Assembly (NCBI GenBank): GCA_020630795.1
Contig: JAHDIK010000001.1
Span: forward strand, 22,341 to 62,340
Length of the DNA stretch: 40,000 nucleotides
Direction: 5' to 3'
DNA from: Colwellia sp.
GTDB taxonomy: Bacteria > Pseudomonadota > Gammaproteobacteria > Enterobacterales > Alteromonadaceae
Below the pieces are notes generated by a model, which was given only the letters and a program-made list of their open reading frames with translations, did not search any database and was not told the origin of the DNA. A program made the translations under genes and the position numbers. Shown here piece by piece: positions 1,604 to 29,853 of the stretch; the first letter of the stretch is position 1; every line of letters starts with the position of its first letter.

Positions 1604-1626
1604 GAAAGTACCCTTTTTGGTTGGGC

Positions 1627-2079: not shown

Positions 2080-2144
2080 GTTGTGTACCTTTGTTCGTTT
2101 TTTATAATGATGTATGAAGTTAGCTTGTTACAACGTTAAGCAAA

Positions 2145-3018: not shown

Positions 3019-3369
3019 GTGATTAGCCACAAGTCTGTTGAAGTTGAATCGCTTTCATCATCGCAACTAAGGCGTATTTATTCGATGCGTCAGGTTCGTT
3101 GGGCTAATGACAAAGCCATTGTCGTTTTTGTTTTACCTAGTCAGCACTCAGTGCATAAAATTTTCTCGAAAGATATGTTGCATATCTTTCCATATCAGTT
3201 AGATCGTATTTGGAAGAAACTAACGTTTTCTGGATTAGGCGTATCGCCAAGGATAGTTAAGTCTCAAGCTGAGCTAATTATAGCTGTGCGTACCACGCCA
3301 GGTGCAATCGGTTATGTTGAGGCCTTAGATAAGGAAGAGCATATTAATGTTATTAAAGTTACAAAATAA
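3019..3369 (+). CDS. periplasmic substrate-binding-like (PBP-like/PstS-like) domain protein; 5' end uncertain
   Basis: 116-aa ORF from GTG. The in-frame upstream sequence 2947-3018 encodes a signal-peptide-like hydrophobic stretch without a canonical start. The ORF overlaps the next gene by 23 nt. Confidence 0.5.
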   Translation: MISHKSVEVESLSSSQLRRIYSMRQVRWANDKAIVVFVLPSQHSVHKIFSKDMLHIFPYQLDRIWKKLTFSGLGVSPRIVKSQAELIIAVRTTPGAIGYVEALDKEEHINVIKVTK

Positions 3370-4582
3370 TTTCGCTACATTGGCTAACACGAAGCTGATT
3401 GCAATCATTTTGTGTAGTTGCTTTATGTATGTGGGTGAATTATCAGCCGAAGAAAAGTCGTTTGCAGATAAAATTAATTTACATGGTTTTGTTGCACAAG
3501 GGTTAATTGATGTAAGTGGCAGTAATTATGTTGATGACGAAGAGGGTATTTCGTACAAATTAACTGAAATCGGGCTTAATGCGTCATATCAGGTGTCACC
3601 CAACGTTCGCTTGGCAGGGCAGGCTGTATATTTAAACGGAGGTAATCGATATAACGAAGGTGTGCGTATCGATCACCTGTTGTTAGAGTGGGCATTGTTT
3701 AACAATGAACACTGGCAAACTAACTTATATTTAGGTCGCATTAAAAATTATCATTGGTTGTATTCAAGTACACGCGATGTACCGATGACACGCCCAACTA
3801 TTATTCTTTCGCAATCTGTATATTTTGATGGCACACGAGATATGTCGGTAGGCGGAAATGGTGGGGCGATTACCACACGCTATTCATCAGAGTCTATTGG
3901 TGATGTTGATTTTAATGTGAGTGTTGGTTTTTCACCTATTTCTAGCAAGCAAACCAATTTGCTTATGGGGAGTGCTTCTACCGGGAAGCTAACACATGAA
4001 GAAGATTTTCAAGCCAGTATATATTGGCGCCCTAATTTATCTCCTTGGAAGTTCGGGTTGGCTACTACTATCGCTGACTTTACTTACAAGCGCGGAAAAA
4101 ATGATGTTTTTCAAGAAGGGATGTTAGCGTTAGAGCGAATTTATGCAAACGCAGAATATCAAGGAGAATTATGGTCATTTAGTGCCGAAGTAGTACAAGA
4201 GAAAAAAGTGTTGAATGGCTTTTTGTTCCCAGGGTTTATTAGCGATACAACAGGCCAAGGTGGGTTTGTTCAGTCTCGCTATCGTGTATCTCCAAACTTA
4301 CAATTGTTAGGGCGTTATGAACATTATTATGCAGATAAAAATGATAAAAGCGGTAAGATATTAGAAGTTTCATCAAATGGTGCTGTTCCACGTTATTTCG
4401 GTTATCAAAATGATTTAACCATTGGTATTAATTACGACTTGTCGTCTAATATGCAAGTACAGTTTGAGTACCATGCAATTAAAGGTACGGCCCGATTAAC
4501 GCCTGTACTTATTCCTGACCCTGCCACCAATAAAAAAGAAAATTGGGATCTGTGGGCACTTCAGTTTATGTACTGGTTTTAA
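3347..4582 (+). CDS. outer-membrane beta-barrel (porin-like) protein
   Basis: 411-aa ORF with an N-terminal signal peptide (LIAIILCSCFMYVGELSA-EE). It has alternating beta-strand-like composition and a C-terminal aromatic residue (..FMYWF) typical of outer-membrane proteins. Confidence 0.5.
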   Translation: MLLKLQNNFATLANTKLIAIILCSCFMYVGELSAEEKSFADKINLHGFVAQGLIDVSGSNYVDDEEGISYKLTEIGLNASYQVSPNVRLAGQAVYLNGGNRYNEGVRIDHLLLEWALFNNEHWQTNLYLGRIKNYHWLYSSTRDVPMTRPTIILSQSVYFDGTRDMSVGGNGGAITTRYSSESIGDVDFNVSVGFSPISSKQTNLLMGSASTGKLTHEEDFQASIYWRPNLSPWKFGLATTIADFTYKRGKNDVFQEGMLALERIYANAEYQGELWSFSAEVVQEKKVLNGFLFPGFISDTTGQGGFVQSRYRVSPNLQLLGRYEHYYADKNDKSGKILEVSSNGAVPRYFGYQNDLTIGINYDLSSNMQVQFEYHAIKGTARLTPVLIPDPATNKKENWDLWALQFMYWF

Positions 4583-4585
4583 ACG

Positions 4586-7018: not shown

Positions 7019-7153
7019 TAAGTCGTTGTACAGAATTCCCAGAAACAGAGTCTGGAATAGCAAAATATCTAGTACCTATTAACGTAAAGTTAAAGGTTAA
7101 GTACATGGAGATGATGCACTTAACCTCAATTCACCTTTCTTAGTTTGTTTAAT

Positions 7154-9007
7154 CTAGAGAATTTTATTTAATAGCGCAGAAAAGTCTTCTGCATTCATAA
7201 AACCGGTCACTCTATTCTGAGTAAGCTCTTCACCTTGTTTGTTAAAAAACAAGATGGAAGGTAAGCCGAAGACCTCAAATTTACCCATAAGTTCAACGCT
7301 TTCATCTGAACCCGTGTCGGTTAAGTCTACTTGTATCATTACCGTATTTTTAAGCGCTTCTTTCACAATAGGCGCACTAAATGTGTAATGTTCAAACTCT
7401 TTACATGCAATACACCAGTCAGCATACAAATCAACCATTACCGTTTTACCCGCTTTGTTTGCATCAATAACGGCTTGCTCAAGTTCGGCAACATTTTTAA
7501 CCATTTTAAAGGTGTTTTCATGTTCCTCAGATTTAGTGTTAGCAGTACTTTGAGTGCTTACTATATTTTGAGTAGGAAAGGCTAGCTGATATGCCAGCAT
7601 AGCGCCGTAAAACATCACTAAAAATATCAGTAACGCACGTACACCATGCCAAAAATTGGCTGTCGTGTTTTTGTTTGTCACGTAAAAATAAGTTGCGGTT
7701 GCAAGTATTAATACTACCCATAACACTTGTGTCACTATCATTGGAACAATTCTGTCTAATAAGAAAATCGGTACGGCGAGTAGTAATAAACCGAAAATAT
7801 TTTTGATAATGTTCATCCAGCCGCCTGCTTTTGGTAGTAATTTACCGCCAGAGCTACCTAAAATTAATAGTGGAAGACCCATACCTAAGCTAAGTGCATA
7901 TAATGCTGATGCGCCCAGTACAATGTCTCCTGTTTGAGAAATGTAAAGTAATGCTCCTGTCAACGGAGCGGTAGTGCAAGGTGAAGCCACTAGACCAGAA
8001 ATTACGCCCATACTTACTACACCTAATACAGAGCCACCTTTTTGTTTATTGCTAATATCATTGAGCTTGTTTTGCCAGCTGCTTGGCAACGCTAAGTTAA
8101 ATACACCAAACATAGAAAGCGCCAAAAATATGAACAAAACACTCAAACCAATCAACACGTATGGATGCTGAAAAGCCGCTTGAAATTGCGCGCCAGCAAG
8201 CGCTACAACAATACCTAAAATGGTATAAGTAATCGCCATACCTTGTACGTAGAAGAACGACAACGTAAATGCTTTTTTAGTGGTTAACTCTTTCCCTTGA
8301 CCAACAATAATACCTGTTAGAATAGGGTACATAGGAAATACGCAAGGCGTAAACGAAAGCAATAAGCCGCCAATAAAAAAAGCAACCAAAGTTAACCATA
8401 AACTGTCTTGCTTAAGCATGTCTGCTAGTTGGTGTTGCTCACTTTTTTCTGCTGTTTCTGTTAAAGGTGCAGCATCGCCTGAATTGTTTTCAGTATTGGT
8501 ATCTGTTCCCGTTAATGCGCTCATAACATTTGCTTGATTCGCACTAACTTGGCTTAAATCAACGGTCTTTCTTGTAGGTGGGTAGCATAACCCTTTTACA
8601 GCACAACCTTGATATCGAATAGTTAACGTAGGGTTCGACTGTGTGCTTTCAATATCAATTGTAAATGCTAACGATTCAGTAAAAACTTTCTGAACGCCAA
8701 AAAACTCATCTTCATGATCTTCGCCTACAGGTAAAACTACCTCGGCAATGGTTGTATTTGTTGGTTTAAATTTAAATTGATGACGATAAAGGTAATATCC
8801 TTCTTCAATATCAAACGTAACTTTTAATTTATTGTCTTGTTGATGAAAATTGAAGCGAAAGGCTTCATCTACTTTTAAAAATTCATCGTCATTACTGAAT
8901 AGTGAAGGAGATGAAACATCAAAAATTGAATCTTGTGCAGTAACTTGTGTCGTTAATAAAAACAGGCTAAAAAAGCTTAGCCATAATAATGAAGTAAGTT
9001 TTCTCAT
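7154..9007 (-). CDS. dsbD: thiol:disulfide interchange protein DsbD
   Basis: 617-aa ORF with a signal peptide, a multi-TM core with Cys residues (FTPCVFPM, ASPCTTAPL) and a C-terminal thioredoxin fold (WCIACK). It overlaps cutA by 4 nt. Confidence 0.9.
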   Translation of the reverse strand: MRKLTSLLWLSFFSLFLLTTQVTAQDSIFDVSSPSLFSNDDEFLKVDEAFRFNFHQQDNKLKVTFDIEEGYYLYRHQFKFKPTNTTIAEVVLPVGEDHEDEFFGVQKVFTESLAFTIDIESTQSNPTLTIRYQGCAVKGLCYPPTRKTVDLSQVSANQANVMSALTGTDTNTENNSGDAAPLTETAEKSEQHQLADMLKQDSLWLTLVAFFIGGLLLSFTPCVFPMYPILTGIIVGQGKELTTKKAFTLSFFYVQGMAITYTILGIVVALAGAQFQAAFQHPYVLIGLSVLFIFLALSMFGVFNLALPSSWQNKLNDISNKQKGGSVLGVVSMGVISGLVASPCTTAPLTGALLYISQTGDIVLGASALYALSLGMGLPLLILGSSGGKLLPKAGGWMNIIKNIFGLLLLAVPIFLLDRIVPMIVTQVLWVVLILATATYFYVTNKNTTANFWHGVRALLIFLVMFYGAMLAYQLAFPTQNIVSTQSTANTKSEEHENTFKMVKNVAELEQAVIDANKAGKTVMVDLYADWCIACKEFEHYTFSAPIVKEALKNTVMIQVDLTDTGSDESVELMGKFEVFGLPSILFFNKQGEELTQNRVTGFMNAEDFSALLNKIL

Positions 9008-9327
9008 AATACAGATTTGGTTGACTCATTAATCCAGTGTAAATAATTGTCATCGCCTTGCTGGATGTTCATGGCAATAATTTCAGGTGTCTCATAAGGG
9101 TGTAATTCGTGTATTTTAGCGGAAATACCACTAAATAAATCACTGGTTGCTTTAATGACTAATTGTAACTCATCGTCAAACTGCAGTTCATCTTCCCAAG
9201 TGTAAACAGACGTTACATTAGGAATAATATTTACGCACGCAGCTAACTTTTTAGTAACTAACGTTTTCGCAATTAATGAAGCCACATCACGAGATGGGCA
9301 TGTACAAAGTATGACTTGAAACATCAT
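9004..9327 (-). CDS. cutA: divalent-cation tolerance protein CutA
   Basis: CutA-like sequence (VILCTCPSRDVASLIAKTLVTKKLAACVNI...YTWEDEL). I chose the ATG-ATG at 9327 rather than the ORF-track start at 9372. The gene uses TGA as its stop. Confidence 0.85.
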   Translation of the reverse strand: MMFQVILCTCPSRDVASLIAKTLVTKKLAACVNIIPNVTSVYTWEDELQFDDELQLVIKATSDLFSGISAKIHELHPYETPEIIAMNIQQGDDNYLHWINESTKSVL

Positions 9328-9492
9328 AAACTTAACCTTAACAAATACCTGATATTCTTGGTTTGATCTCAATGAACAAAGCTTACGCTATTCACTTAAA
9401 TCTTAGTAGTTTAAATGCAGTGCACTTGAACCTTGCTTGAAAAAGACCTGACAAACCCCATATATGTTTCATTAAATAATAGAGAGATTATT

Positions 9493-9993
9493 ATGTTTAG
9501 GTTTTTGTTCCTCCTATTTATTGTTATACCCATTATTGAAATTGCGCTGTTAATGCAGATAGGACAATGGATTGGCGTATGGCCAACTATTGCTATTGTT
9601 ATTATTACTGCTTGGTTGGGCGCAAAAAATGTAAAGCAGCAAGGTATCTCTACGTTAAATTCTGTTCAAACTAAAATGGCTCAAGGGCAAGCTCCGTCAG
9701 AGGAAATAGTTTCAGGCTTAATGTTACTTATTGCTGGCGTTTTATTGTTAACACCAGGGTTTGCGACCGATATCTTTGGTTTGTCTTTACTCATACCTTC
9801 ATTTCGCAAAGGTATTGTTAAAGTGTTCCAAAAAAATGTACCTACACAAACGTTTACTGGTGGAGGGTTTCAATATCACTCTCAACATGAACAGCCGGTT
9901 AACGATGACTTTTTTAGAGAACCAGATAAAAAAGATCCGAGTTCACGCCATCAGGGCCAAATACTTGATGGAGAATTTGAGCGTAAAGAATAA
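9493..9993 (+). CDS. fxsA: FxsA family membrane protein
   Basis: MFRFLFLLFIVIPIIEIALLMQIG... is typical of the FxsA N-terminus. I chose the start at the internal ATG 9493. The gene keeps its conserved position upstream of groES. Confidence 0.8.
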   Translation: MFRFLFLLFIVIPIIEIALLMQIGQWIGVWPTIAIVIITAWLGAKNVKQQGISTLNSVQTKMAQGQAPSEEIVSGLMLLIAGVLLLTPGFATDIFGLSLLIPSFRKGIVKVFQKNVPTQTFTGGGFQYHSQHEQPVNDDFFREPDKKDPSSRHQGQILDGEFERKE

Positions 9994-10010
9994 AAAAAAT
10001 TTTACAGGGG

Positions 10011-10038
10011 CTTGTGAAGAATTTTTTAGGCCCCATCT
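10011..10038 (+). promoter_or_regulatory. sigma32 (heat-shock) promoter of groES-groEL
   Basis: cttgtgaa at 10011-10018 and ccccatct at 10031-10038 match the sigma32 consensus CTTGAA ... CCCCATNT at appropriate spacing. The site is about 55 nt upstream of groES. Confidence 0.65.
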
Positions 10039-10093
10039 CTGAATCAACAAAGAATTTAAACCCTATTAAAGAAAATCGTCTCAGGAGAAAGAA

Positions 10094-10384
10094 ATGAGTA
10101 TTCGTCCATTACATGATCGCGTAATTATTAAACGTAAAGAAGTAGAATCAAAGTCTGCTGGTGGCATCGTATTAACAGGTAGTGCCGCTGAAAAATCTAC
10201 ACGTGGTGAAGTAGTAGCAGTAGGTAACGGCCGTATTTTAGAAAATGGCGAAGTACGTGCGCTAGACGTAAAAGTTGGCGACCAAGTTATTTTTAGTGAA
10301 GGCTATGGCGTTAAAACTGAAAAAATTGATGGTGAAGAAGTACTAATTTTAAGTGAAGCAGACATCTTAGCGATTGTTGAATAA
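10094..10384 (+). CDS. groES: co-chaperonin GroES
   Basis: 96-aa [37 protein letters not shown]... Confidence 0.97.
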
Positions 10385-10445
10385 TTCACACAATAAACTG
10401 ATTTCAAACGCATTGTATAAACGATGCATTAGATAGATACATTGA

Positions 10446-12107
<1,662 letters not shown>

Positions 12108-12190: not shown

Positions 12191-12332
12191 TGTTTCAACT
12201 TGTTTCACCATAACTCAACGAGTTTCATAATTTTGGGGGTATAATGTGGGGTGTTTAGTGCTTGCATGATCTCACTTTAAGGTGTTTAATTGGGGTGGTA
12301 CCCCTTAATAAACCCCTGGTGAGTTTTCCGTT

Positions 12333-13538
12333 ATGTCGCTGACAGCCCAAGAAGTTAAAAGTATTTGTTGTCCTGAAGATAAAAAGCAAATTAAAAAGTT
12401 TGATGGTAAGGGCTTATTTTTATTGATTAAAAGTAATAATTCTAAGCTGTGGAGGATGCGCTATCGGTTTTCAGGTAAGCATAAAGAAATAGCTTTAGGT
12501 CAGTACCCTGAGATACCCCTTGTTGAAGCAAGGAGGTTAGCAGAGGAGGCAAGGGTGTTACTGATGAAGGGCATTAACCCTTCAGACGAAAGAAGAGAAC
12601 GCAAACGCAGCTATTCAGTAACAGACAGACAATTTAATGTAATCGCTTTGAAATGGTGGGAGCAACAAAAAGATGCTTGGTCTGCGGATCACCAAGCACG
12701 AGTGAAGCGTTTTATCACCATTGATTGTAAATCGTTAACTTCATTGCTGATAGAAAAGATAGATGCTGGACACATTACCGAAGTCATGTTGTCTATAGAG
12801 GCTTCAGGTAGCCCTAAAAAAGCCCCTGTTATACTTTCCGTTATTAATCGCATCTTTGGCTACGCACTTGCTCATAGGCTGACGAGAAATAACCCCGCAC
12901 AAGGCTTACCACTAAAAGATATCATTAAGCCACTTAAAAAAGTTCGATCTCACTCAGCAATTATTAACCCTATAGAGTTGGGTAACTTAATTCATGACAT
13001 AGATATGACAATTTCAGGCACTTTCTGTACAGCTGAGGCACTAAAGCTTATTCCAAGGGTATTTCTTAGGCCAAAAGAAATTAGAGGGCTTAAATGGGAA
13101 TATGTTGATTTTGAGGAAAAGCTGATACGGATTCCCGCACAAGAAATGAAAAAAGACCGAGACCACCTTGTTCCGCTTTCTAAACAAGTCATTAAGCAGC
13201 TTGAATATATTTATGTTGAAACAAGATATTCACCTTATGTTTTTCCAAATAGCCGTGACAGCAGTATACCTATGAGTAAAAATGTAATGACAAATCGATT
13301 ACGAGACTTGGGATATTCGGCCGATGTTATGTCAGCTCATGGCTTTAGAAGTACGGCTTCAACAATTTTGCATGAACAAGGGTGGTCGCATGATGCGATA
13401 GAAGTGCAATTAGCTCACCTAACAGGGTCAAATACATCACGAGCATACAACCGAGCTATATATTTACCAGAGCGTAAAAAAATGATGCAAACGTGGAGTG
13501 ATTACTTAGAGGAGCTTAGTTCACAAAATAAAAAGTAA
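12333..13538 (+). CDS. tyrosine-type site-specific integrase (P4-like, N-terminal Arm/DUF4102-type domain)
   Basis: 401-aa ORF. The N-terminus (GKGLFLLIKSNNSKLWRMRYRFSGKHKEIALGQYPEIPLVEARRLAEEAR) is typical of the P4 integrase family. The catalytic region contains HGFRSTAST and LAHLTGSNTSRAYNRAIY. Confidence 0.9.
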   Translation: MSLTAQEVKSICCPEDKKQIKKFDGKGLFLLIKSNNSKLWRMRYRFSGKHKEIALGQYPEIPLVEARRLAEEARVLLMKGINPSDERRERKRSYSVTDRQFNVIALKWWEQQKDAWSADHQARVKRFITIDCKSLTSLLIEKIDAGHITEVMLSIEASGSPKKAPVILSVINRIFGYALAHRLTRNNPAQGLPLKDIIKPLKKVRSHSAIINPIELGNLIHDIDMTISGTFCTAEALKLIPRVFLRPKEIRGLKWEYVDFEEKLIRIPAQEMKKDRDHLVPLSKQVIKQLEYIYVETRYSPYVFPNSRDSSIPMSKNVMTNRLRDLGYSADVMSAHGFRSTASTILHEQGWSHDAIEVQLAHLTGSNTSRAYNRAIYLPERKKMMQTWSDYLEELSSQNKK

Positions 13539-13581
13539 TCAGCTCTCTTTAATGTACGGAAGCCATAATGTATAGGTGCAA

Positions 13582-14028
13582 TCACTTACTACGTATCCAT
13601 TCTTGTATATCTGATAATCGCCAACCCACATTACTGGTGCTTAGTGCGATACGAGCAGGAAACTTACCTGCACGCTCTAAACGCCAAAGGGTAGTTCTTG
13701 ATAAACCAGTAAGTGCTTGAACTTCTTTCGAACGAACAATTTTATCTTGAGCTGAATCAAAACCTTGCGGCTTGTGAGAAACATTAACAGCAGGAGCAAC
13801 TGCTTGAACTTTACCCAGTAAATAATTAAGTAATTGAAAACCAAAAAACTCGATTTGTTTTTCAGTAACTTGAATAAACTCTATTTGATGACTCGCTTGT
13901 AATTTGGTAATTTCAGCTAACGGACACCGCAAAAATAGTGATGCTTCAGTAGGTGTAAATCGTTGATATAACGATATCCCCATACTATCGGCTAGTTCAC
14001 ATAAATTGGGTGTAAACGGCTTATCCAT
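13582..14028 (-). CDS. AlpA-family excisionase/transcriptional regulator with an extra N-terminal HTH-like domain
   Basis: The C-terminus (IVRSKEVQALTGLSRTTLWRLERAGKFPARIALSTSNVGWRLSDIQEWI) matches the Phage_AlpA/HTH_17 pattern. The gene is convergent with the integrase and stops at TGA. Confidence 0.7.
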   Translation of the reverse strand: MDKPFTPNLCELADSMGISLYQRFTPTEASLFLRCPLAEITKLQASHQIEFIQVTEKQIEFFGFQLLNYLLGKVQAVAPAVNVSHKPQGFDSAQDKIVRSKEVQALTGLSRTTLWRLERAGKFPARIALSTSNVGWRLSDIQEWIRSK

Positions 14029-14139
14029 CTAGTCGTTATGTTCCTGTCGTTGCACATTAATGTTAGTGTAGAGAATGTTATTGATTTCCTTTCAATTAGC
14101 ATACAAAATAAATCATAGGATCACTAGAGAATAGTTTAC

Positions 14140-14565
14140 ATGGCATTTGCAGTTCATCTATCAAAATCAAACGAAAACTCGCTTGAAGCGCGGGTAAATA
14201 ACTTTCGTTCTGCATATGCTGCCTATCGTGATATTCAAACCAGCCAGTCACTCCACCAGCAAGCTCAAATGCAAGATACATTAGGTACAAAAGAAGAGTT
14301 AACAGAGGCTAACTCTATTATCAAGAGTAGCCTCGATATGGCTGCCAAAGACTTTAGTAAAAGTGAACTTCAAAAAGCTCAAAAGTTAGGGTTGATTTCT
14401 GATTTAGAAGTCAAAAGTATTGATGCGCTTACAATGGGTAATGACTTTACTGTTTCCCCTGCTGAACATGAGATCCAAGAGAATAAAAACCGTATAGCTG
14501 AAGCTAGAGCCTCAATGAATACTAAAAATAACGAGAAGAGCAAAGACAAAGGTAGAGATTTTTAA
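14140..14565 (+). CDS. hypothetical protein (141 aa, helical/charged)
   Basis: ORF only. Its C-terminal tail resembles the C-terminus of the island relaxase (see findings). Confidence 0.35.
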   Translation: MAFAVHLSKSNENSLEARVNNFRSAYAAYRDIQTSQSLHQQAQMQDTLGTKEELTEANSIIKSSLDMAAKDFSKSELQKAQKLGLISDLEVKSIDALTMGNDFTVSPAEHEIQENKNRIAEARASMNTKNNEKSKDKGRDF

Positions 14566-14626
14566 CAACAACCTAGTTGTTTATTTCTTTTAACTTCGTT
14601 TATTCCGTTTAAATAACGCAGTAAAC

Positions 14627-14755
14627 TGATAGTTAAGCCAATATTGTACATTAACTATCACGCTTTTCAGGACAACTATCACATTAATCAGGGTTAAAAT
14701 CTCATTTTTCAGGTATTAAGACACACTTTTCAGTATATAGGTTTTATTATCACAA
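14627..14755 (+). repeat. iteron array (putative oriV / rep operator)
   Basis: Four to five direct repeats in exact 21-bp phase: 14651 ttaactatcacgcttttcagg, 14672 acaactatcacattaatcagg, 14693 gttaaaatctcatttttcagg, 14714 tattaagacacacttttcagt, 14735 atataggttttattatcacaa. An inverted half-site tgatagttaa at 14627-14636 is the exact reverse complement of 14651-14660. The array lies immediately upstream of the Rep_3-type gene. Confidence 0.6.
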
Positions 14756-14816
14756 AATTTGCATTTATGTGATTTTTCAATAGATTATAAATAGTCTATT
14801 ACTTAACCACCTAAAA

Positions 14817-16079
14817 ATGTCCCACCAAGAAATAACTGCAATTGATTGAAATAAATCATTAGTCAGATGAAACGACTTTACTTCAGCCAGTTACACGCTT
14901 TCGCCAGATGCCCATAGAATATTAGCTGTAGCAATATCAGCCATAGCTAAAGATGATCAAAACTTTGTTACCTTTCGCATATATACCAAGCAACTTATCG
15001 ATTTTTATCCGGCACTCAAAAACGATAAAAATGCTATTGCTAGGATAGACCAAGCGACCGATTCACTCATGAGCGCTCATATCAAAATAAAACAAGTCAA
15101 TGGCTGGCTCAAAAGGCACTTAATCCATTCTTGTCAGTTTATTAAAAACAACGGCCATGCCTATGTTGATATCAAGCTCAATAACGATATGCTGCCATAT
15201 CTCATTGGCGTTAAAGGCTACTTTTCAGCACCAAAACTAGAAAATATCAAACACTTTAAAAAAGACCAGCACTTTAAACTTCATGCTTACTTATTCTCGT
15301 ATCTTTATCGTGGTACTACTGGCAATGTCAGCATTGAACAAATTCGTGAAATACTCGATATCGACAAAAAGCAATACAAATTGGTGTGACACTTAAAAAG
15401 CCGTTTATTACTGCCAAGTATCGAATTTATTAATGTCGTAACCGATATCAAAGTGACAATTAAAGACGTAAAACACGGTAGGCGTATAGCAGGGTTTAAA
15501 TTTACCATTAGCAAGCAATACAAGGACAGAGCTAAAACAACGCCAAAACAAATAATCGAGAAAGCACAGCCAACAACTACCCACATGGCGCTAGCAGAGC
15601 AATATAAAGCTATTGGTGTAAAAGCGGACGAATTCGAAAAACTAAGTAAGAAACATGAACAAACTTACCTTAAGCAATTGCTTATTTATGCTCAATACCG
15701 CACAACTAAACAAACCATACAATCAATGTTCAAGTACTTGTGCGGTGTTTTAAACAATAAACCGCAGCTAGAAGATTTATACACGCCAAATTGCCTATTA
15801 AAACAGAAACAAGCAAAACAAAAATTAGTTGAAATTCATCAACAACAAACAAGTAATCTACAAACACAAGATAAAGTAGATGAGTTTAAAGCGCTGTCGA
15901 AAAAAGTAGAACAGTACTTATTAAGCTGTTCTGAAAGTCATCTCCAAACAATAAACCAAGAATTTAGCGAACAAAGTTTTGCTACCGGGCTAACCAAGCT
16001 TTGAAAAACAGTAGACTTAAACAAAACTTATATTAAAGCCATGTATTACCTCTTTATCGCTAAACATTATCATCTATAA
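14817..16079 (+). CDS. Rep_3-type plasmid replication initiator, single frame containing in-frame TGA codons (disrupted/pseudogene under standard code 11)
   Basis: One frame runs from ATG 14817 to TAA 16077, joining track ORFs 15069-15389 and 15453-16004. The N-terminus (LVRxNDFTSASYTLSPDAHRILAVAISAI) and C-terminus (LLLPSIEFINVVTDIKVTIKDVKHGRRIAGFKFTI) fit the Rep_3 pattern. In-frame TGA codons occur at 14847, 14868, 15387 and 16002, with no TAA/TAG and no frameshift. Confidence 0.65.
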
Positions 16080-16248
16080 AGAAACAGTTTTTTTACAGTC
16101 ATGTTGTACAAATTATTTATACAGTGAGTTATGCCTTAAGTTTTCAAGTTGTAAATATTGTAACTGCTCACTAACTTACCAACCTTTACAACTAGCCAAA
16201 AACAGGCATAACTAAAAATCTTTTTGCCAAATAAACATCGTCAATATA

Positions 16249-16288
16249 ATAAGTTAGCAATAAATGATTATTTGCTAACTTATTTTTA
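16249..16288 (+). terminator. hairpin plus T-run downstream of rep (terminator or operator)
   Basis: 12-bp perfect stem ataagttagcaa (16249-16260) pairs with ttgctaacttat (16272-16283), followed by ttttt. Confidence 0.45.
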
Positions 16289-16498
16289 ATGAGCAAAAAA
16301 AAGAAGTTTTTAACCGCGATTCAAGTAGATGTTTTTAACAGCTGACTGGCAACCAACCCGCCTAAAGGCAAAAAATACCAATGATGATTAGACAAGGTGA
16401 AAGTGTATTACGACTTAGTACCATTGACTGAGCATGAACTGGCGTCGATTGTGAAGTATATTCGCATATTGAGTAGAAATAACGATAAGGATATTTAG
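16289..16498 (+). CDS. possible small protein (69 codons) with three in-frame TGA codons, including a TGA-TGA tandem
   Basis: Own translation from ATG 16289 to TAG 16496 gives MSKKKKFLTAIQVDVFNSxLATNPPKGKKYQxxLDKVKVYYDLVPLTEHELASIVKYIRILSRNNDKDI. TGA codons are at 16343, 16382 and 16385. No family was recognised. A GTG-initiated 33-codon version without TGA is an alternative. Confidence 0.3.
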
Positions 16499-16689
16499 GC
16501 TGGTTGATGGCTTGTGATACTCTCTGTGTGGCAACGATATTATGTATAAATAAGGTTTAAAGATTGAATACTTCTACCAAGCATTAATCGCATATTAAAC
16601 AGTAAGCCATGCAACCATTAAATACCTGCCATAAGCACCACCAATTGCCACCGTATATGCACTGCTATAATACTCATTAAAATTTAAAA

Positions 16690-18135
16690 ATGTTACAAGC
16701 AGCTCAATGGCTGAAAAGATCCCGGCATAAGTTCAAATTGCACCAATTTTTACGACAATTGAATAAACACCTAACCACAAACGGCCTAAAAAAACACGGT
16801 TATTTAGTCGCATCATCATGAAGTGGTAAAAGTGAGTTGATCAAGCTATTAGTTTATCGAGAACTAATCAAACCTGAACCAAAAGAGGCAGTAATATTGC
16901 TAGACCCTCATGGTGATATGGCACAAGAAATTGCGCAGTTTAACGAGTTTAGCCACACAAAATACGCTAACCGATTAGTGTTTATTGATCCAAGTTTGAA
17001 GCAAGGCTATTCACCCAGTATTAACCCGTTTCAGCTTGAATTTAAAACAGAAAGTAACATTGCCTTAATGACACAAGAGCTACTAAGTATTATCAATGTA
17101 CTCCTGCAATGATTAGGGCAATCAAATAGCTGAACACCAAACCAATGAGCCAGTACCACAAATCAAATGGACGCGATTTTAAGCCCATGTATTGCCACGC
17201 TGTTACGTTGTGGAAATAGCTCATTTTCTGACTTACAGCGCTTTATGGACGACAACAATAATGCTGATTTACTGGCTTTAGGGCAGCAATCACCTAATCC
17301 ACAACATAGGTTATTGTTCAGGCATAAATTTAACAGCCCGTTATTTAGTGCTACTAAACACGGCATTTATACCCGTTTACAAGTGATATTAAATGATCCC
17401 ACGTTTCAAAACCTGATATCCAATACCACTACCATTAACTTGAAACAGCTCATTGAAGAAAAGAAAATTATTCTTTTCAAATTATCACTCGGTAATGCCT
17501 GAAGTGATAGCGTACAAGCTTACGGGCGTTTTATTGTTGGCCTACTGCGAATTATTGCCCTGCAAAGAACCAACATAGCAGTACACAAACGCGTACCAAT
17601 ACTGCTGTTTATTGATGAGTTCCAAAACTTCATTTCTAGCGATATAGAAAAGGCACTCACACAGCTAAGAAAGTACGGTTTACACTTAATGCTAGCGAAT
17701 CAATATGTATGACAACAAATATCATCAGCACTGCAAAAAACGCTATTTGCATCAGGCGTTACAATTGCCGGAAAAAATGAAAAAAAGAGTTTAGGGTTAC
17801 TAGCTAATGAAATGGAACTTACAGTTGATGAACTTAAACAGCTAAATACTGGGGAGTTTTACCTGCAAGCAGCAAACTACCCACCGATTAAAATTAAAAC
17901 GCCTAAGTACCTGCTATGAAGCAAAAACGCTATGCCATCAAAGCATCGGTATAACTTGATAAAACAAAACTTACAACGTTATTACAGCAAACTTAAACCA
18001 CACGATGCTCATAGTGATTTAACCCACGAGATTAACAATCAAAAACATAATCAATATTATGTGAGCCAGCAACAAATAAGCCCCAATACCCAACTCGAAA
18101 ACTTACACAGTAAATACCAACTTGAATGAGACTAA
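16690..18135 (+). CDS. TraD/FtsK/HerA-like P-loop DNA-translocase-type ATPase, single frame containing eight in-frame TGA codons (disrupted under code 11)
   Basis: One frame runs from ATG 16690 to TAA 18133, joining track ORFs 16837-17112, 17167-17502 and 17932-18129. Walker A is VASSxSGKS (x = TGA at 16819). LLDPHGD and Walker B (ILLFIDEFQNF) are present, as is a MLANQYVxQ motif. TGA codons are at 16819, 17110, 17131, 17146, 17500, 17710, 17917 and 18127. Confidence 0.7.
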
Positions 18136-18959
18136 CCGAAAAACAGATCATCATTTTAGAAGCCTTGGCTCGTTTTAAATACTTAACCAGTCAACAACTA
18201 CAAATAATATTCACCAGTAAAAGTACCAGCGCTATAAATACCGCGATTAGAAGTTTAAAAGGCTTTAAATATCCATTAGTAAAAAGCTTAAGCTTTGGCA
18301 TAACCCCATGACACGGTAAATTGCCACACGTTCATTTTTTAACGTCTGCGGGTATTAAAGTTTTGGTAGAGCAGTTATCAATACCACTACAAAAAATATA
18401 CGCACCTACGCACAGAAACAGCTTTTTCCAGCGTGATTACTTTCATCGTATATCAACCGTTACCTTTAATATTTTGTTCCAGCGCTGGCTAATAAACCAA
18501 GGCCATCAACTGTATTTTTTCAAAAGTTATTTCAACCGACCAAAACATGAAAACGGCCACAAAGCTGAAACGACAATAACAAGCTGAGAATACAAATCAG
18601 AACCTGATGGCATAGGTTTATATTTCGCTAATACCCAGCCGCATTTGTTTTTATTTGAACAACATAATGGCGTAGATGCAAAGCGCGCTATAGGGCAAAT
18701 AACTCACCATTGTTACGGCTTAGCCAATGGCGCAGCGTCTGAACAATTTAAACTGAATAAGCCTTTAAAAATTTATTATGTTTTTGAGCACGAAAGCTGT
18801 TTGAAGGCAGCACTTAACTATTTTGAAAACGATAAATGACTAATGAAGTTTAGAGGCCATTTTTACTTCAAAACCAATCAAGCACTAATAAATAATTTTG
18901 CTGAACACTGGCAAATACCATGATCAGTAAATGCTAAACAATTTTGTTCACTGCAATAA
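18126..18959 (+). CDS. Replic_Relax (replication-relaxation) family protein, single frame containing four in-frame TGA codons (disrupted under code 11)
   Basis: One frame runs from ATG 18126 to TAA 18957, joining track ORFs 18126-18311, 18321-18587 and 18645-18839. The N-terminal wHTH-like region (LTEKQIIILEALARFKYLTSQQLQIIF ... GKLPHVHFLTSAGIKVL) fits the family pattern. TGA codons are at 18309, 18585, 18837 and 18921. Confidence 0.6.
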
Positions 18960-19034
18960 GTAAATTTCGTTGTTCTTAGTCTCAAAAAGCTAAGGGCAAC
19001 GGCATGTTTACTTATTGCAAAAAAGGAGCAATTT

Positions 19035-19355
19035 ATGTCGCACTTAGCCACACCTGAATTAAAAAAAATATTCGAAAACTACCCGTTTTACTCGCAAGAA
19101 AACAACAGTGACCCGTTAGTTATTGCCAAATTGTTTGATGCATACGGCAGCGCTACGTGGTATATCACCGAATATAGCCCGGTAGAAAACACCGCTTTTG
19201 CTTATGTTACTGGCCTAGCTCATGATGAATGGGGCTACGTGTCGTTAACAGAGCTTGAAAGCATCATGCTTGCGGCACAAGTGCCACGAATTGAACGTGA
19301 TATGTATTTTGAATCAGTTAAATTTAGTGAGCTGAAATTGAAAAAGGCATGTTGA
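19035..19355 (+). CDS. DUF2958 domain protein
   Basis: 106-aa ORF with a strong SD (aaggag). PLVIAKLFDAYGSATWYITEY...AFAYVTGLAHDEWGYVSLTELE is typical of plasmid/ICE DUF2958 proteins. It stops at TGA 19353, immediately followed by a terminator. Confidence 0.75.
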   Translation: MSHLATPELKKIFENYPFYSQENNSDPLVIAKLFDAYGSATWYITEYSPVENTAFAYVTGLAHDEWGYVSLTELESIMLAAQVPRIERDMYFESVKFSELKLKKAC

Positions 19356-19357
19356 TT

Positions 19358-19390
19358 AAAAAGACCAAGGAAACTTGGTCTTTATTTTGG
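19358..19390. terminator. bidirectional rho-independent terminator
   Basis: Stem aagaccaag (19361-19369) pairs with cttggtctt (19374-19382), with T-runs on both strands. It sits between convergent genes. Confidence 0.65.
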
Positions 19391-19858
19391 TGAGTCTTCT
19401 GTTTTAGCATTTGCAATTTTATTAACTAAAACAAGAGTAATAATAAAAAGTTGAATTACATTATTGATGAGCGACATCATCATTAATCTGAACGCGATAC
19501 TTTGTGCTTGAGTGGTAAAGGTGACAATGCTGGTTGCAAAAGTTATGAATAGGCACGCTATTGTGATTTTAAATAATGTAAAAAAAACTTCAGAATTTCC
19601 ATCCTCTAGCCATCGCTTAAAAAATTTATATTTTTGCAGTGAAAATAAAAACGTAGCCATAGCGGCAAGAAAGCCAAGCATAGTAAAGCTAAACCCTGCA
19701 ATTATCGTAGAAAGTGTCCGGACATCAGTAAACCCCAAACTTAATTGAAATTTGGATTTAATAAACAAATAAATGAGGCCAAGTACTACGCCTATCAGTG
19801 GTGATAGATAAGCGACTTTTTTTAATTTAGCTATCTGAGTTTTCGTCATTTTTTTCAA
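19382..19858 (-). CDS. small four-TM membrane protein (158 aa)
   Basis: ORF with four hydrophobic helices. It overlaps the upstream 325-aa gene by 23-32 nt (TTG at 19858 or ATG at 19849). No family was recognised. Confidence 0.6.
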   Translation of the reverse strand: MKKMTKTQIAKLKKVAYLSPLIGVVLGLIYLFIKSKFQLSLGFTDVRTLSTIIAGFSFTMLGFLAAMATFLFSLQKYKFFKRWLEDGNSEVFFTLFKITIACLFITFATSIVTFTTQAQSIAFRLMMMSLINNVIQLFIITLVLVNKIANAKTEDSPK

Positions 19859-26778: not shown

Positions 26779-28238
26779 TGTCAAAAATTATCAAAGATAC
26801 TTTTTCAGGCTTATTTAAGATTGGCTCGCTCGTCGCTAAAAATAAGTTGTTAGTAAAAGAAACAGGCGCAAGGTTTGCTACAGCTAAAGAGCTAGCTTCT
26901 ATTTTTTCCGGCCGAAATAAAGGCTTATTGATTGATGGGAAAAACAACCGTATTTCTCAAACAGATTCATATGAACATGTTGCGGTAATCGCTAAACCGG
27001 GTAGTGGTAAAACAACAGCGTTTATTATTCCTAACATTTTTGAACTATCAAATTCCGATTGTTCAATGATTGTGAACGATCCAAGTTCAGAAGTTTACCA
27101 ACTTACTAGCGGCCATTTGAAAGTCCAAGGTTATAGGGTTTTAAAATTAAGTCCTGATGATTTAGCGTCATCTTCTCGATTTAATCCCTTTGCGGGTTTA
27201 GATGCTCGTCATACCATAGAAATAGAGCAAGTATGCGCTGCAATCATTATGTCAAAGTACAGTACTGATAAAGAACAGCTTTGGAATGATGGTGCTATTT
27301 CTATTATGGAAATATTGGCTAAATGTTTAGCTTACAGCCAACCACATAAGCTAAACCTTGTTGAACTAAATTCGTTAGTGCAACGTTTTGGTAGTGATGG
27401 CTCCGGTTTAGATGATTGGGTAGCTGAAAATGCAGTTAATCCGTATTACCCAAATGATAAAAGCTTGGTTGAATCATGGATTGGCTTAACAACCAGTAAT
27501 GAAAAAATGCTAAGTAGCTATGTCACTATTTGTAAAACGGCATTAAAACAATTAAACAACCCCCAAGTTCGAGAATTACTAAGTTCAGATACGCTAGAGT
27601 TGGAAAGTATTCGCCAACAAAATACTATTATATATTTAAATTTTCCTGAATCTCAGCAAGCTTATTATCAGTTCATTATTGACGTATTTTACGCACGCCT
27701 TTTTACTGAGGTAATGAAAGCTAAACCCACAAAACACGAATTAGACATATTCGCGTTTTTAGATGAGTTTGGTAATTCTTATATTCACAATTTTAATACC
27801 ATCATCACCAATGTTCGAAAGTACCGAGTATCCTTATCTTTGGTGTTTCAAGGCATATCTCAACTAGAAGATAAATATGGTGAACAACGCGCCAAATCAA
27901 TAAAAGCAGGTATAGGTAGCTCATTGATATTTAAAGGCGGTGATTTAGACACCAACCAAGAGTTTGCACAAGTGATCGGTAAACGAGTGATCACGCAACG
28001 GGAAAATTTTACGAGTGTTGTTCAACAGTACAATGAACTAGATTTACTGTCTTCAGGGCAGCTTAGAACGCTAGCTGACAACCAAGCTGTTTATGTTTCA
28101 AAACATCACCATCCAACCATTGTTGAAACAGTTAACTTTTTTAATCATTCCCGTTATGCTGGTTTAGCTAAAAAACAACCCGCTCAATGTAATGAGCAAT
28201 CAATTAAACTCGATTTTGATAGTAAGTTAAGGATTTAG
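26778..28238 (+). CDS. type IV coupling protein (TraG/VirD4/TraD family), no N-terminal TM segment
   Basis: 486-aa ORF from GTG with SD gaagga. Walker A is AKPGSGKTT and Walker B is FAFLDEFGN. Confidence 0.85.
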   Translation: MSKIIKDTFSGLFKIGSLVAKNKLLVKETGARFATAKELASIFSGRNKGLLIDGKNNRISQTDSYEHVAVIAKPGSGKTTAFIIPNIFELSNSDCSMIVNDPSSEVYQLTSGHLKVQGYRVLKLSPDDLASSSRFNPFAGLDARHTIEIEQVCAAIIMSKYSTDKEQLWNDGAISIMEILAKCLAYSQPHKLNLVELNSLVQRFGSDGSGLDDWVAENAVNPYYPNDKSLVESWIGLTTSNEKMLSSYVTICKTALKQLNNPQVRELLSSDTLELESIRQQNTIIYLNFPESQQAYYQFIIDVFYARLFTEVMKAKPTKHELDIFAFLDEFGNSYIHNFNTIITNVRKYRVSLSLVFQGISQLEDKYGEQRAKSIKAGIGSSLIFKGGDLDTNQEFAQVIGKRVITQRENFTSVVQQYNELDLLSSGQLRTLADNQAVYVSKHHHPTIVETVNFFNHSRYAGLAKKQPAQCNEQSIKLDFDSKLRI

Positions 28239-28240
28239 GC

Positions 28241-28477
28241 ATGGGATTTGAATTTCAATTTATTGCATTTTATTTAATTTTTGGGTTTTCAGGATTATTC
28301 CTCGGCTGGTTTTTTAGAAATGGTATATCAATTATCGGGATAATCTTTCTAGCCTGTGTTTATCCAATTATTCAGGTTTTATCAACTATTAACGTATTTC
28401 AATTTACAATTTGCTTTTTAGCTGGTTTCTTAATCCACACATGGAAACCTATATATCATAAGTTTAAAAGCCTATGA
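28241..28477 (+). CDS. small membrane protein (78 aa)
   Basis: ORF with hydrophobic helices. IIGIIFLACVYPII resembles VAIGLLFLLFMYPVF in the next gene. Confidence 0.45.
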   Translation: MGFEFQFIAFYLIFGFSGLFLGWFFRNGISIIGIIFLACVYPIIQVLSTINVFQFTICFLAGFLIHTWKPIYHKFKSL

Positions 28478-29253
28478 GTGAGTTAATTTTTACAACCGCT
28501 TTGGTTATGTTTGCGGGGTATTTAGCAGGCAAACTATTTAAAGGTTTTAATCCTTTCTTGGTAGCCATTGGCTTACTGTTTTTACTCTTCATGTATCCAG
28601 TATTTATGGAGTCTGAAAACGAATATGTTACATACGCTATTTTTGGCTTTGGTGTGATATTGAATTTTAATCAGCCCGTATCAAGATTACGTGCTTGGTT
28701 CGCTGATTTAATGAACCTTATAAGTCTACGCCGATTTAGTGCAAGTTATGCTAATGATATTGGTGAACAAAAAGAACAAGTTGAAGCCGACTTATATCGT
28801 CAAAAACACGAAGTCGAAGAAGAAATCAGACGACAAAAGCGACAAGCTGAACAAGACATTGAACGCCAACGCAGAGAGGCTGAAGAGGCTATTCGTCGAG
28901 AAGCTGAAAATCTGAAACGTGAGCAAGAAAGAGCGCGTTCAAATAATAGTAAAAGCCAGAATAGCCAAGACAATTCTAGACAAGAAAGCAATCAAAATAG
29001 ACAAAGCCAAAATCAATCAAAAAATACTGATTCCGGCCACTTAAATCCTCAATATTTCCCCGATGCTTGTGAAGTATTAGGTAAAGGAGAAGGCTGCATT
29101 TTAAAAGAATATAAAGTTGCTTATATGCAACTTATTAAGTTGTATCACCCTGACAAAATTTCATGCTTATCTGGATCTCGTAAAGCCCAAGCAGAAAATG
29201 AAGCAAAGTTAATAAATGCTGCTTGGGATACGATTAAGAAAAAGCTTAAGTAA
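28474..29253 (+). CDS. membrane-anchored coiled-coil protein with a C-terminal J-domain
   Basis: 259-aa ORF with N-terminal TM helices, a charged coiled coil (EEEIRRQKRQAEQDIERQRREAEEAIRREAENLKREQERAR) and a Q/N/S-rich linker. The C-terminus YKVAYMQLIKLYHPDKIS...EAKLINAAWDTIKKKL carries the HPD motif of J-domains. Confidence 0.7.
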   Translation: MSELIFTTALVMFAGYLAGKLFKGFNPFLVAIGLLFLLFMYPVFMESENEYVTYAIFGFGVILNFNQPVSRLRAWFADLMNLISLRRFSASYANDIGEQKEQVEADLYRQKHEVEEEIRRQKRQAEQDIERQRREAEEAIRREAENLKREQERARSNNSKSQNSQDNSRQESNQNRQSQNQSKNTDSGHLNPQYFPDACEVLGKGEGCILKEYKVAYMQLIKLYHPDKISCLSGSRKAQAENEAKLINAAWDTIKKKLK

Positions 29254-29290
29254 ATCAAATTAAAATAATAATAAATACAAGGCAGTAAAT

Positions 29291-29806
29291 ATGTTCCATC
29301 TCTTCAAAAAGTCTCTAATAACTTTTGCTGCCATATTTCTAATGACTGGTTGTAGTGCAATGTATAAAGATCAACAAAGAGTTGATCGTATTCATCACCA
29401 ACGCGTCAGTTACACCCAGTCAATGATGAAAATTAAGTATAAATACGATAGAAACTCATACCCTGGTAGTAGTTACAAACTTTATTTGGATAATCAATAC
29501 CTTTTAACTTCAGACAAGGACAACATACTTCATTTAACAGATAAAAAATTACGTTGGAAGTTATATGAAAGTTATAAAACTAAAGGAAGGCTTTGTTTTG
29601 AAATCCGTAAAAGCAAACCGAAATATGATTTGTCACTATTTTCAGAATACAGTTGCCTTATTAATACAGAGTTAGAGAAAAAGTTTGCTGCTGACATAGA
29701 AATTGAAGAAATAGAGCAAAAAATTAAACGTTTAAAGCGACAACTGAAAAATGAAAGTGTTACTAATAACTCAAACTTTAATGCTAAAACTCAGGCTGTT
29801 CCTTGA
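29291..29806 (+). CDS. putative lipoprotein (171 aa)
   Basis: The signal peptide ends in a lipobox-like LMTGC. No family was recognised. Confidence 0.5.
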   Translation: MFHLFKKSLITFAAIFLMTGCSAMYKDQQRVDRIHHQRVSYTQSMMKIKYKYDRNSYPGSSYKLYLDNQYLLTSDKDNILHLTDKKLRWKLYESYKTKGRLCFEIRKSKPKYDLSLFSEYSCLINTELEKKFAADIEIEEIEQKIKRLKRQLKNESVTNNSNFNAKTQAVP

Positions 29807-29853
29807 ATGATGGGCGTGCTTAGGCTTTAATCTATCATTTAGAATACGCGATC

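Follow-up and report, generated by a model that had tools for sequence, protein, structure and literature searches.

The window analysed here, a stretch of 40,000 nucleotides (nt) from Colwellia sp., carries a mobile element that begins directly behind the host gene groEL, spans from a tyrosine integrase gene (from 12333) to about 29.8 kb and is most likely an integrative mobilisable island of ~17.7 kb in a standard-code gammaproteobacterium related to Colwellia. With respect to the codon TGA, genes can be divided into two classes. Genes without in-frame TGA, in which TGA is read as stop, are referred to as class A, and genes with in-frame TGA as class B. Five island genes, all on the + strand, belong to class B, encoding a Rep3-family replication initiator (Rep3), a 69-aa protein (s69), a P-loop ATPase, a Replic_Relax-like protein (RR) and a 121-aa protein (s121). 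In-frame TGA occurs 22 times in these genes; TAA, TAG and frameshifts are absent from their frames, and all five terminate on TAA or TAG (Table 1). Related contigs and loci that were compared with the window are designated by L-numbers.

Table 1. Genes and features of the window and positions of in-frame TGA codons
Feature	Position	Strand	Class	In-frame TGAs	Remarks
Host genes	257-12107				accC, accB, aroQ, GGDEF/EAL protein, dsbD, cutA, fxsA-like, groEL; ordinary gammaproteobacterial set
groEL (host)	10455-12107	+			by translation; island begins directly downstream
Tyrosine integrase (int)	12333-13538	+	A		Pfam Arm-DNA-bind_3, Phage_int_M, Phage_integrase; 401 codons without TGA; TAA stop; homologs also TGA-free
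AlpA-like regulator/excisionase (alpA)	13582-14028	-	A		Pfam Phage_AlpA; TGA stop at 13582-13584
141-aa open reading frame (p141)	14140-14565	+	A		3' end is a variable cargo slot
Rep3-family replication initiator (rep)	14817-16079	+	B	4: 14847, 14868, 15387, 16002	Pfam Rep3_N, Rep3_C; TAA stop
69-aa open reading frame (s69)	16289-16498	+	B	3: 16343, 16382, 16385 (the last two in tandem)	TAG stop
VirD4/TraD/HerA-like P-loop ATPase	16690-18135	+	B	8: 16819 (Walker A), 17110, 17131, 17146, 17500, 17710, 17917, 18127	Pfam T4SS-DNA_transf, DUF87, TraG-D_C; TAA stop; TGA 18127 lies two codons ahead of the TAA and overlaps the ATG of RR
277-aa Replic_Relax-like protein (RR)	18126-18959	+	B	4: 18309, 18585, 18837, 18921	TAA stop; similarity to Replic_Relax weak (PF13814, E=0.034, below threshold)
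DUF2958 gene	19035-19355	+	A		Pfam DUF2958; within the class B operon; TGA stop at 19353, none internal
Terminator-like hairpin and T-run	19360-19383	+			immediately 3' of the DUF2958 TGA
Cargo block	19827-24084	-	A		RexA-like, 257-aa membrane protein, RhuM, HsdM_N fragment, WYL-domain protein (Pfam); no internal TGA
121-aa open reading frame (s121)	24439-24804	+	B	3: 24544, 24661, 24724	TAG stop
Mobilisation block	25099-29806	+	A		MobC (TGA stop at 25477), 350-aa putative relaxase, VirD4-type coupling protein, 78-aa gene (TGA stop at 28475), J-domain protein, 171-aa lipoprotein gene (TGA stop at 29804) (Pfam)
VirD4-type coupling protein (T4CP)	26778-28238	+	A		within the mobilisation block

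No internal TGA occurs in the other 15 island genes (3,592 codons) or in the 20 host genes of the window (5,787 codons), and the difference between the island's class A and class B genes corresponds to a Fisher p = 4e-13. TGA ends 3 of the 20 host genes and 6 of the 15 class A genes, among them mobC, whose TGA overlaps the ATG of the following gene. UGA is therefore not a sense codon throughout the genome, as it is in organisms using genetic code 25 (UGA read as Gly), since TGA continues to act as a terminator in host and class A genes. The window does not include prfB, the gene of release factor 2 (RF2), but these functioning stops argue that RF2 is present in the host. A preliminary description of the window had stated that TGA is a sense-like codon in some island genes and a stop in their neighbours, with no suppressor tRNA in sight, and this holds. 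We could locate all 22 internal TGAs again, as well as the TGA-free neighbouring genes; the five individual TGA stops it had listed (Table 1) are all real, and a terminator-like hairpin follows DUF2958 as it had said. Its scan for tRNA genes agrees with ours, as neither ARAGORN nor Rfam cmscan (E<=1) nor a custom covariance model built from two island tRNAs detected any tRNA in the 40-kb window. The assignment of TGA to Gly, the purifying selection on the TGAs and their family-wide spread had been missed.

Comparison with homologs points to Gly as the residue encoded by the in-frame TGAs. In the window ATPase the Walker A motif reads ASS-TGA-SGKS, compared to AQTGSGKS in homologs from Vibrio and Pseudoalteromonas, and three other TGA sites of the same protein likewise align with Gly of standard-code homologs. 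Over ~60 related loci, TGA and Gly exchange for each other in invariant Gly columns in many lineages, including the invariant G of the GK[ST] motif, which is TGA in L015 and L017. When only columns that are at least 80% conserved and carry TGA in some member are considered, Gly is the conserved residue in 22 of 30. The enrichment in these TGA-bearing columns amounts to x8.5 for Gly, while Ser and Cys both stay at x1.0 and Trp falls to x0.23. The same use of TGA extends to a large serine recombinase with 12-13 TGAs, some of them in its RPG and PFGY motifs, in Motiliproteus sp. MSK22-1 (NZ_MIEQ01; L015, 19495-21042) and in a Neptuniibacter metagenome-assembled genome (L016, 15800-17377), so that the integrase there belongs to the TGA class, unlike the tyrosine integrase of the window. 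The Gly codons of the window class B genes comprise 15 GGT, 21 GGC, 2 GGA, 8 GGG and 22 TGA, while GGA makes up ~15% of Gly codons both in class A and in the host; as a Gly codon, TGA has thus almost replaced GGA in class B.

The nucleotide following the codon carries a signal as well. Among 400 de-duplicated sense-TGA contexts collected family-wide, this base is T in 13.8%, compared to 23.6% after GGN, and A in 43.8%, compared to 34.5% (chi-square p ~8e-5). Depletion of T and enrichment of A at position +4 is the direction expected under competition with RF2, and the observed bias fits such competition. Since UGA is the leakiest bacterial stop and read-through is favoured by the +4 A that is overrepresented here, it could be argued that ordinary host tRNAs decode these codons as near-cognates, with no dedicated suppressor and with very low, self-limiting expression. 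We consider this very unlikely. Each gene carries 3-8 UGAs, including the tandem pair of s69, and the yields of successive read-through events would multiply to essentially nothing. Moreover, near-cognate decoding of UGA inserts mainly Trp, while the TGAs coincide with invariant Gly residues, those of the P-loop among them, in columns that are depleted of Trp.

The TGAs are found at identical codons in L001, L006, L007, L008, L020, L022, L024 and L027. Among the sources of the module are two cultured isolates, Colwelliaceae bacterium 6441 (L007; JBFONU01) and Colwellia sp. 1_MG-2023 I2R04 (L008; NZ_JAUOPE01), the Logan assemblies L001 (99% identical) and L006, and many metagenome contigs. Pairwise ratios of non-synonymous to synonymous substitution rates (dN/dS) of class B genes lie at 0.04-0.14 (s69 lower still) at dS of 0.3-1.5, in the same range as for the adjacent TGA-free DUF2958. 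In Rep3 the TGA positions are kept in 8 orthologs (dN/dS 0.08-0.13) and in s69 all three TGAs are kept in 10 (0.01-0.24, mostly <0.06); the ATPase shows values of 0.08-0.14. The TGAs of RR are conserved, with one changed to GGA in L027 (0.04-0.10), and those of s121 are conserved in L008 and L020, its homologs in L010-L013 and L017 being TGA-bearing, too. From identical TGA positions together with low dN/dS it follows that class B genes are translated through their TGAs often enough for purifying selection to act. The in-frame TGAs do not reflect decay. In the preliminary description, strain-specific decay had been the outcome favoured if orthologous islands lacked TGAs; they carry them, at identical codons.

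Pseudogenes formed by such decay, or errors of sequencing and assembly, are effectively refuted as an explanation, even though standard pipelines do split such genes, as for L002, L004, L005 and L069, which were called with code 11 and in which they appear as fragments. Pseudogenes would be expected to show mixed stops, indels and relaxed selection, whereas here the frames are interrupted by TGA only, never by TAA, TAG or an indel, the same TGA positions recur in independent isolate, metagenome and Logan assemblies, and purifying selection acts downstream of the TGAs. DNA modification or a miscalled G was rejected as well, the T being present in independent assemblies and solely at in-frame Gly codons. 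For L001, L003, L006 and L075 public gene callers used code 4, by which Trp was deposited where Gly is meant (proteins P0001-P0012).

The division into two classes is not restricted to the window. Homologs of int, alpA, p141, DUF2958, mobC, the putative relaxase and T4CP show a GGA:TGA ratio of 112:1 down to 35-40% identity, compared to 358:507 in homologs of Rep, s69, ATPase, RR and s121 (p = 6e-38). The sole TGA in a class A family was found in DUF2958 (one among 25 homologs), and the mobilisation block is free of internal TGA in homologs down to 35% identity. Stop codons exchange in class A, with TGA in 9 and TAA in 9 alpA orthologs and with TAA/TAG in 16 and TGA in 2 DUF2958 orthologs, while class B families stop on TAA/TAG, except for the near-terminal TGA of the ATPase and some distant Rep and s121 homologs. 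This exchange of TGA, TAA and TAG as class A stops, next to TGA-rich class B genes, means that in a single element the gene family decides how TGA is read, and the split persists through deep divergence. Nearly every member of the family is a mosaic of TGA-containing and TGA-free genes, in contexts of 31-50% GC. Some relatives are TGA-free altogether (L014, L048-L056), from which we conclude that the use of TGA as sense originated inside a family of gammaproteobacterial elements. Which genes carry TGA varies in a more distant element represented by L002-L005 (marine metagenomes, 17-19 kb), in which TGA is lacking from the ATPase (681 aa) and from a primase of 956 aa, and 6 TGAs occur in an AAA_21 protein, 2 in the tyrosine integrase and 3 in Rep3.

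For the partition, the preliminary description had offered a mosaic of modules with different histories or conditional read-through, and had suggested a comparison of composition. The TGA genes indeed have a codon usage distinct from that of the host and of the other island genes: the correlation of relative synonymous codon usage with the host is 0.74 for class B, compared to 0.88 ± 0.02 when class A is subsampled to equal size. In synonymous usage, class B genes have fewer NNT and more NNC and NNA codons than either the host or the remaining island. A marked strand asymmetry was additionally noted in the class B block at 15000-19000, with a GC skew of -0.12 to -0.15 and an AT skew of +0.14 to +0.24. 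The int-alpA-p141 arm (12333-14565) shows 96-99% protein identity to L022 and L030, whereas rep, ATPase and RR (14817-18959) are only 85-92% identical to the same loci, with ~85% nucleotide identity in the groEL flank. This contrast between the arms indicates recent horizontal spread and recombination at the slot behind p141. Modular recombination is thus real, and the module mosaic stands as far as codon usage and arm identities go, yet mosaicism alone does not explain the TGA partition. Conditional read-through is the better supported of the two proposals, as the split holds to 35-40% identity and sister islands carry a tRNA with the anticodon UCA.

This tRNA(UCA) was detected by ARAGORN in L024 (identical to L069), L070, L071 and L075. 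A UCA tRNA of this kind, which would be expected of a code-25 organism and, as a suppressor, of a recoded element itself, is absent from the window copy and present in sister islands, where it lies between p141 and rep. The junctions are best seen in L070, in which positions 2-961 match 13603-14550 of the window and 4721-6198 match 14564-16050, with 3.76 kb inserted between. The insertion point of the cassette corresponds to 14564/14565 of the window, at the 3' end of p141 and ahead of rep. Besides the tRNA, the 3.76-kb insert holds two open reading frames (ORFs), a gene for a secreted coiled-coil protein with sense TGA, and a tyrosine transposase of the type associated with repetitive extragenic palindromes (REP-associated tyrosine transposase, RAYT). 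The 117-aa, 249-aa and coiled-coil proteins of the cassette gave no significant Pfam match. Homology between islands breaks precisely at this slot (14550-14565), and unrelated inserts occupy it elsewhere, namely a 335-bp small membrane ORF in L008, an 800-bp secreted-protein gene in L027 and a RAYT gene only in L076/L077. The 3' end of p141 is accordingly a recombination and general cargo slot. REP-like palindromes of the type GTCGGAGTCGAAAA...TTTTCGACTCCGAC flank the tRNA(UCA) (L070, 2240-2340; L075, 400-515) beside the RAYT gene (Y1_Tnp). The tRNA cassette may have been moved by a RAYT/REP mechanism. The contigs reached through the RAYT homologs P0125 and P0126 contain RAYT and lack the tRNA, BLAST of the tRNA against plasmid and phage collections gave no match, and a 17-mer scan of IMG/VR returned two chance matches, neither with a tRNA, while a pattern of the 5' half returned nothing.

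The acceptor and T stems of the tRNA(UCA) measure 7 bp and 5 bp, its anticodon loop reads CUUCAGA and its extra arm is ~24 nt long. Its sequence is GCGAGUGUAGUGUAACGGUAGCACGCARGCCUUCAGAGCYUGAUUAUCGGUGUCCAGCYGAGUGGUGCGGGUUCRAAUCCCGUCACUCGCUCCA. It scores 62.8 bits with the general tRNA model, above the tRNA-Sec model. The tRNA of L075 differs from that of L024, L070 and L071 by 4 substitutions, all of them compatible with the structure and including one compensatory change of A-U to G-C in the anticodon stem. The first acceptor pairs (G1:C72, C2:G71, G3:C70), U73 and the T arm are identical to tRNA-Gly(UCC) genes of jumbo-phage tRNA arrays; the 3' half matches at 24 of 24 positions and the D arm is similar, so that the differences from the tRNA-Gly(UCC) body lie in the anticodon and in ~20 nt inserted into the variable region. 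Together, U73 and acceptor pairs 1 to 3 make up the classical identity set of E. coli glycyl-tRNA synthetase. With a Gly-type acceptor stem and T arm and a UCA anticodon, the molecule is a tRNA-Gly derivative suited to reading UGA, matching the codon evidence, and we infer from its sequence that it is charged with Gly and decodes the class B TGAs.

Assignments other than Gly, that is Trp as in code 4, selenocysteine or cysteine, appear highly improbable. They are suggested by the W that database callers gave in orthologs, by ARAGORN, which labels the tRNA 'SeC', and by the combination of U73 and a UCA anticodon, which is also known from selC* tRNA-Cys species (PMC5389517). The enrichment of Gly in the TGA columns, in which Trp is depleted and Cys stays at x1.0, argues against them, as do the 7/5 fold, the best score with the general model and the tRNA-Gly(UCC) acceptor stem and T arm. 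Selenocysteine was tried as a candidate in its own right and rejected: tRNA-Sec needs an 8/5 fold and G73, while the island tRNA has 7/5 and U73, and the UGA sites align with Gly.

Starting from the TGA pattern with its conservation, the purifying selection, the equivalence with Gly, the partition by class and the Gly-type tRNA gene in sister islands, we propose class-specific recoding of UGA to Gly by a tRNA-Gly-derived suppressor, which for the window copy would be supplied in trans, and we hold this reading to be probable, with moderate confidence. According to it, class B mRNAs would be completed only when a UGA-reading Gly-tRNA is present and would otherwise stop at their first TGA, while RF2 would still terminate host and class A genes. 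In a copy without the cassette, such as the window, the tRNA would come from another element or locus in the cell. The TGAs would thereby form a translational lock on the replication/ATPase module, with the tRNA as the key. Supply of the tRNA in trans is suggested by the tRNA-less copies of several lineages, isolates included, which are intact and under purifying selection; a copy of the tRNA elsewhere in the genome of the window, and likewise a regulatory role, we infer.

Several points weigh against this proposal. The tRNA(UCA) is present in only 4 of ~75 loci, in at least two diverged cassette variants, and absent from the window and most related contigs. Where host and class A genes end on TGA, a suppressor that inserts Gly at UGA would cause read-through as well. 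The gene adjoining the tRNA seems to stem from a code-25 organism, and the cassette could be incidental cargo. A long variable arm is a class II feature, and together with U73 it has been argued to permit charging by seryl-tRNA synthetase in other irregular tRNAs (PMC5389517); Ser is, however, not enriched in TGA columns. Finally, retention of TGA above the neutral expectation is at most suggestive: ~1.5 changes from TGA to GGA are expected per pair and 0-1 are seen, and the pairs are not independent.

That the excess of retained TGAs is not significant per pair also speaks for a neutral origin of the pattern, in which GGA would have drifted to TGA under a suppressor tRNA that the window copy has since lost, leaving class B genes as untranslatable relics. 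The absence of the tRNA from the window and from most copies agrees with this course of events as well. Drift under a suppressor should, however, have hit class A of the same islands too, which down to 35% identity shows 1 TGA against 112 GGA. Copies without the tRNA in at least 5 lineages have acquired neither a frameshift nor another stop and show dN/dS of ~0.1, and GGA has been almost eliminated from class B. We therefore regard neutral drift as unlikely, if still worth weighing.

The coiled-coil gene beside the tRNA provides a link to organisms using code 25. Its GC content is 29.6%, compared to 36% for the island, and it shares 317 bp at 86% nucleotide identity with L068 (JGI 3300045138, 11.9 kb of a 24.5-kb contig). 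The GC content of L068 is 26.7%, and all of its ORFs contain TGA, which accounts for 1-5% of their codons; the ORFs include poly-Gly runs such as '#GGGG#G#G#G#', and it also encodes a YbaK-like tRNA_edit protein. Judged by these features, L068 evidently derives from a genuine UGA=Gly bacterium, and owing to the 317-bp match at least part of the cassette came recently from a UGA=Gly organism. This opens a different reading, in which a two-code island crosses the code boundary: class B would be translated only where a UGA-to-Gly tRNA exists, be it after transfer to a code-25 bacterium of the Gracilibacteria or Absconditabacteria, which live on Gammaproteobacteria as episymbionts or predators, or alongside a partner element with the tRNA captured from a bacterium of this type, and class A in the standard-code host in which the island is integrated. 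Apart from the match to L068, such shuttling would account for the purifying selection in tRNA-less islands, as selection would be exerted in the other host, and for the assignment of replication genes to class B and of integration genes to class A. Several observations are nevertheless at odds with it. Class B modules follow the GC content of standard-code hosts from 31% to 50%, their third positions are richer in C than those of the host and not richer in AT, and none of the family members detected comes from a context that is all-TGA and low in GC. Further, the +4 bias suggests competition with RF2, while code-25 bacteria have been reported without RF2. An island-borne tRNA would be superfluous in a code-25 host, and the integrase itself is TGA-rich in L015 and L016. 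Consequently, we judge passage between two codes to be improbable; if true, the island would provide the first demonstrated case of a mobile element that carries DNA, along with part of a genetic code, back and forth between Patescibacteria and their hosts.

The element that would be governed by class-specific recoding is a candidate integrative mobilisable element. Integrase, AlpA, MobC and the VirD4-type T4CP were confirmed by Pfam; the 350-aa putative relaxase and p141 gave no significant Pfam match, and no convincing direct repeats that could represent att sites were found flanking the island. Related islands reside at the same site downstream of groEL in L007, L020 and L022, whose groEL flank is syntenic with that of the window at 84-86% nucleotide identity. 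Pfam shows no capsid, tail, terminase or lysis genes in the island, and IMG/VR yielded only one distant match. Megablast of the island against a plasmid collection returned no near-identical DNA, and tblastn of the ATPase against plasmids only relatives of ~28-31% identity, in rhizobial plasmids and one uncultured-bacterium plasmid. Short tandem repeats occur just upstream of rep (14653-14692, 1.9 copies of 21 bp) and within the 5' end of the gene (14912-14947, 2.5 copies of 15 bp). These repeats could be iterons of a Rep3 origin. The cargo looks defence-related, with a RexA-like protein, RhuM, an N-terminal fragment of HsdM and a WYL-domain regulator. Sister islands differ in their cargo at this place, L006 carrying a glyoxalase and L024 an SLFN_AlbA_2/HATPase_c_4 protein.

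Among known systems, reading of UGA as Gly is established in code 25 of Absconditabacteria (SR1) and Gracilibacteria (BD1-5), where it is brought about by an additional tRNA-Gly(UCA) (PMC3812714, PMC4032931). As in code 25, UGA occurs here at conserved Gly positions, a separate Gly-type UCA tRNA exists and TGA takes over from GGA. In contrast to that code, which is genome-wide and in which UGA is never a stop, recoding is limited to one gene class of a mobile island in a standard-code host, the variable arm of the island tRNA is extra-long, and most copies, the window included, lack this tRNA. Laboratory UGA suppressors derived from glyT of E. coli consist of a tRNA-Gly(UCC) body with the anticodon UCA and insert Gly at UGA with RF2 present. 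The island tRNA shares the tRNA-Gly(UCC)-type body, the anticodon and, probably, the presence of RF2 with these lab mutants, but they have canonical short variable loops, whereas the gene found here occurs naturally, is conserved, has ~20 nt inserted in the arm and is linked to the genes that depend on it. With allo-tRNAs and selC* tRNAs (PMC5389517) it has in common the long variable arm, U73, an opal anticodon and its location on mobile or accessory DNA; those tRNAs have 8/4 or 9/3 acceptor/T stems and Ser or Cys identity, as opposed to the 7/5 fold and the tRNA-Gly(UCC) acceptor stem and T arm found here.

On the level of the element, recoded phages (crAss-like phages, Lak megaphages and others) that read TAG as Gln or TGA as Trp by means of phage suppressor tRNAs (bioRxiv 10.1101/2021.08.26.457843; PMC9523058; PMC10879173) offer a parallel, with a mobile element in a standard-code host, a recoded subset of genes, an element-borne suppressor tRNA and a proposed translational switch. 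Unlike those phages, the present element is a non-phage island with integrase, MobC and T4CP, the assignment is Gly, and the suppressor usually does not lie on the same element. Phages have also been proposed to straddle code-25 and standard hosts through avoidance of TGA (PMC10746230). Helper-dependent integrative mobilisable elements such as SGI1 (PMC7433901) are similar in that they are chromosomal islands with an integrase, mobilisation genes, a replication module of their own and conditional activity. SGI1-type islands are triggered by transcriptional activators of the helper, while the trigger proposed here would be a tRNA.

In a full-text literature search no report was found of UGA=Gly genes or of tRNA-Gly(UCA) outside SR1/Gracilibacteria and their phages. 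So far, stop reassignment within a standard-code cell has been described for phages, and UGA-to-Gly only as the genome-wide code of two lineages of Patescibacteria. New is therefore a family of non-viral chromosomal islands that uses UGA as Gly in a fixed subset of genes in cultivable marine Gammaproteobacteria (Colwellia, Motiliproteus), and further new aspects are the constancy of the recoded subset over deep divergence and a tRNA-Gly-derived suppressor that travels as a cassette. If confirmed, this has consequences for annotation, as code 11 or the code 4 fallback of Prodigal renders class B genes as fragments or with Trp for Gly, and cultured strains would be available for experiments on partial recoding. 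The cassette would moreover preserve a physical record of genes passing between code-25 bacteria and Gammaproteobacteria, and in the island family itself a codon would act as a private key by which one module of the element is gated.

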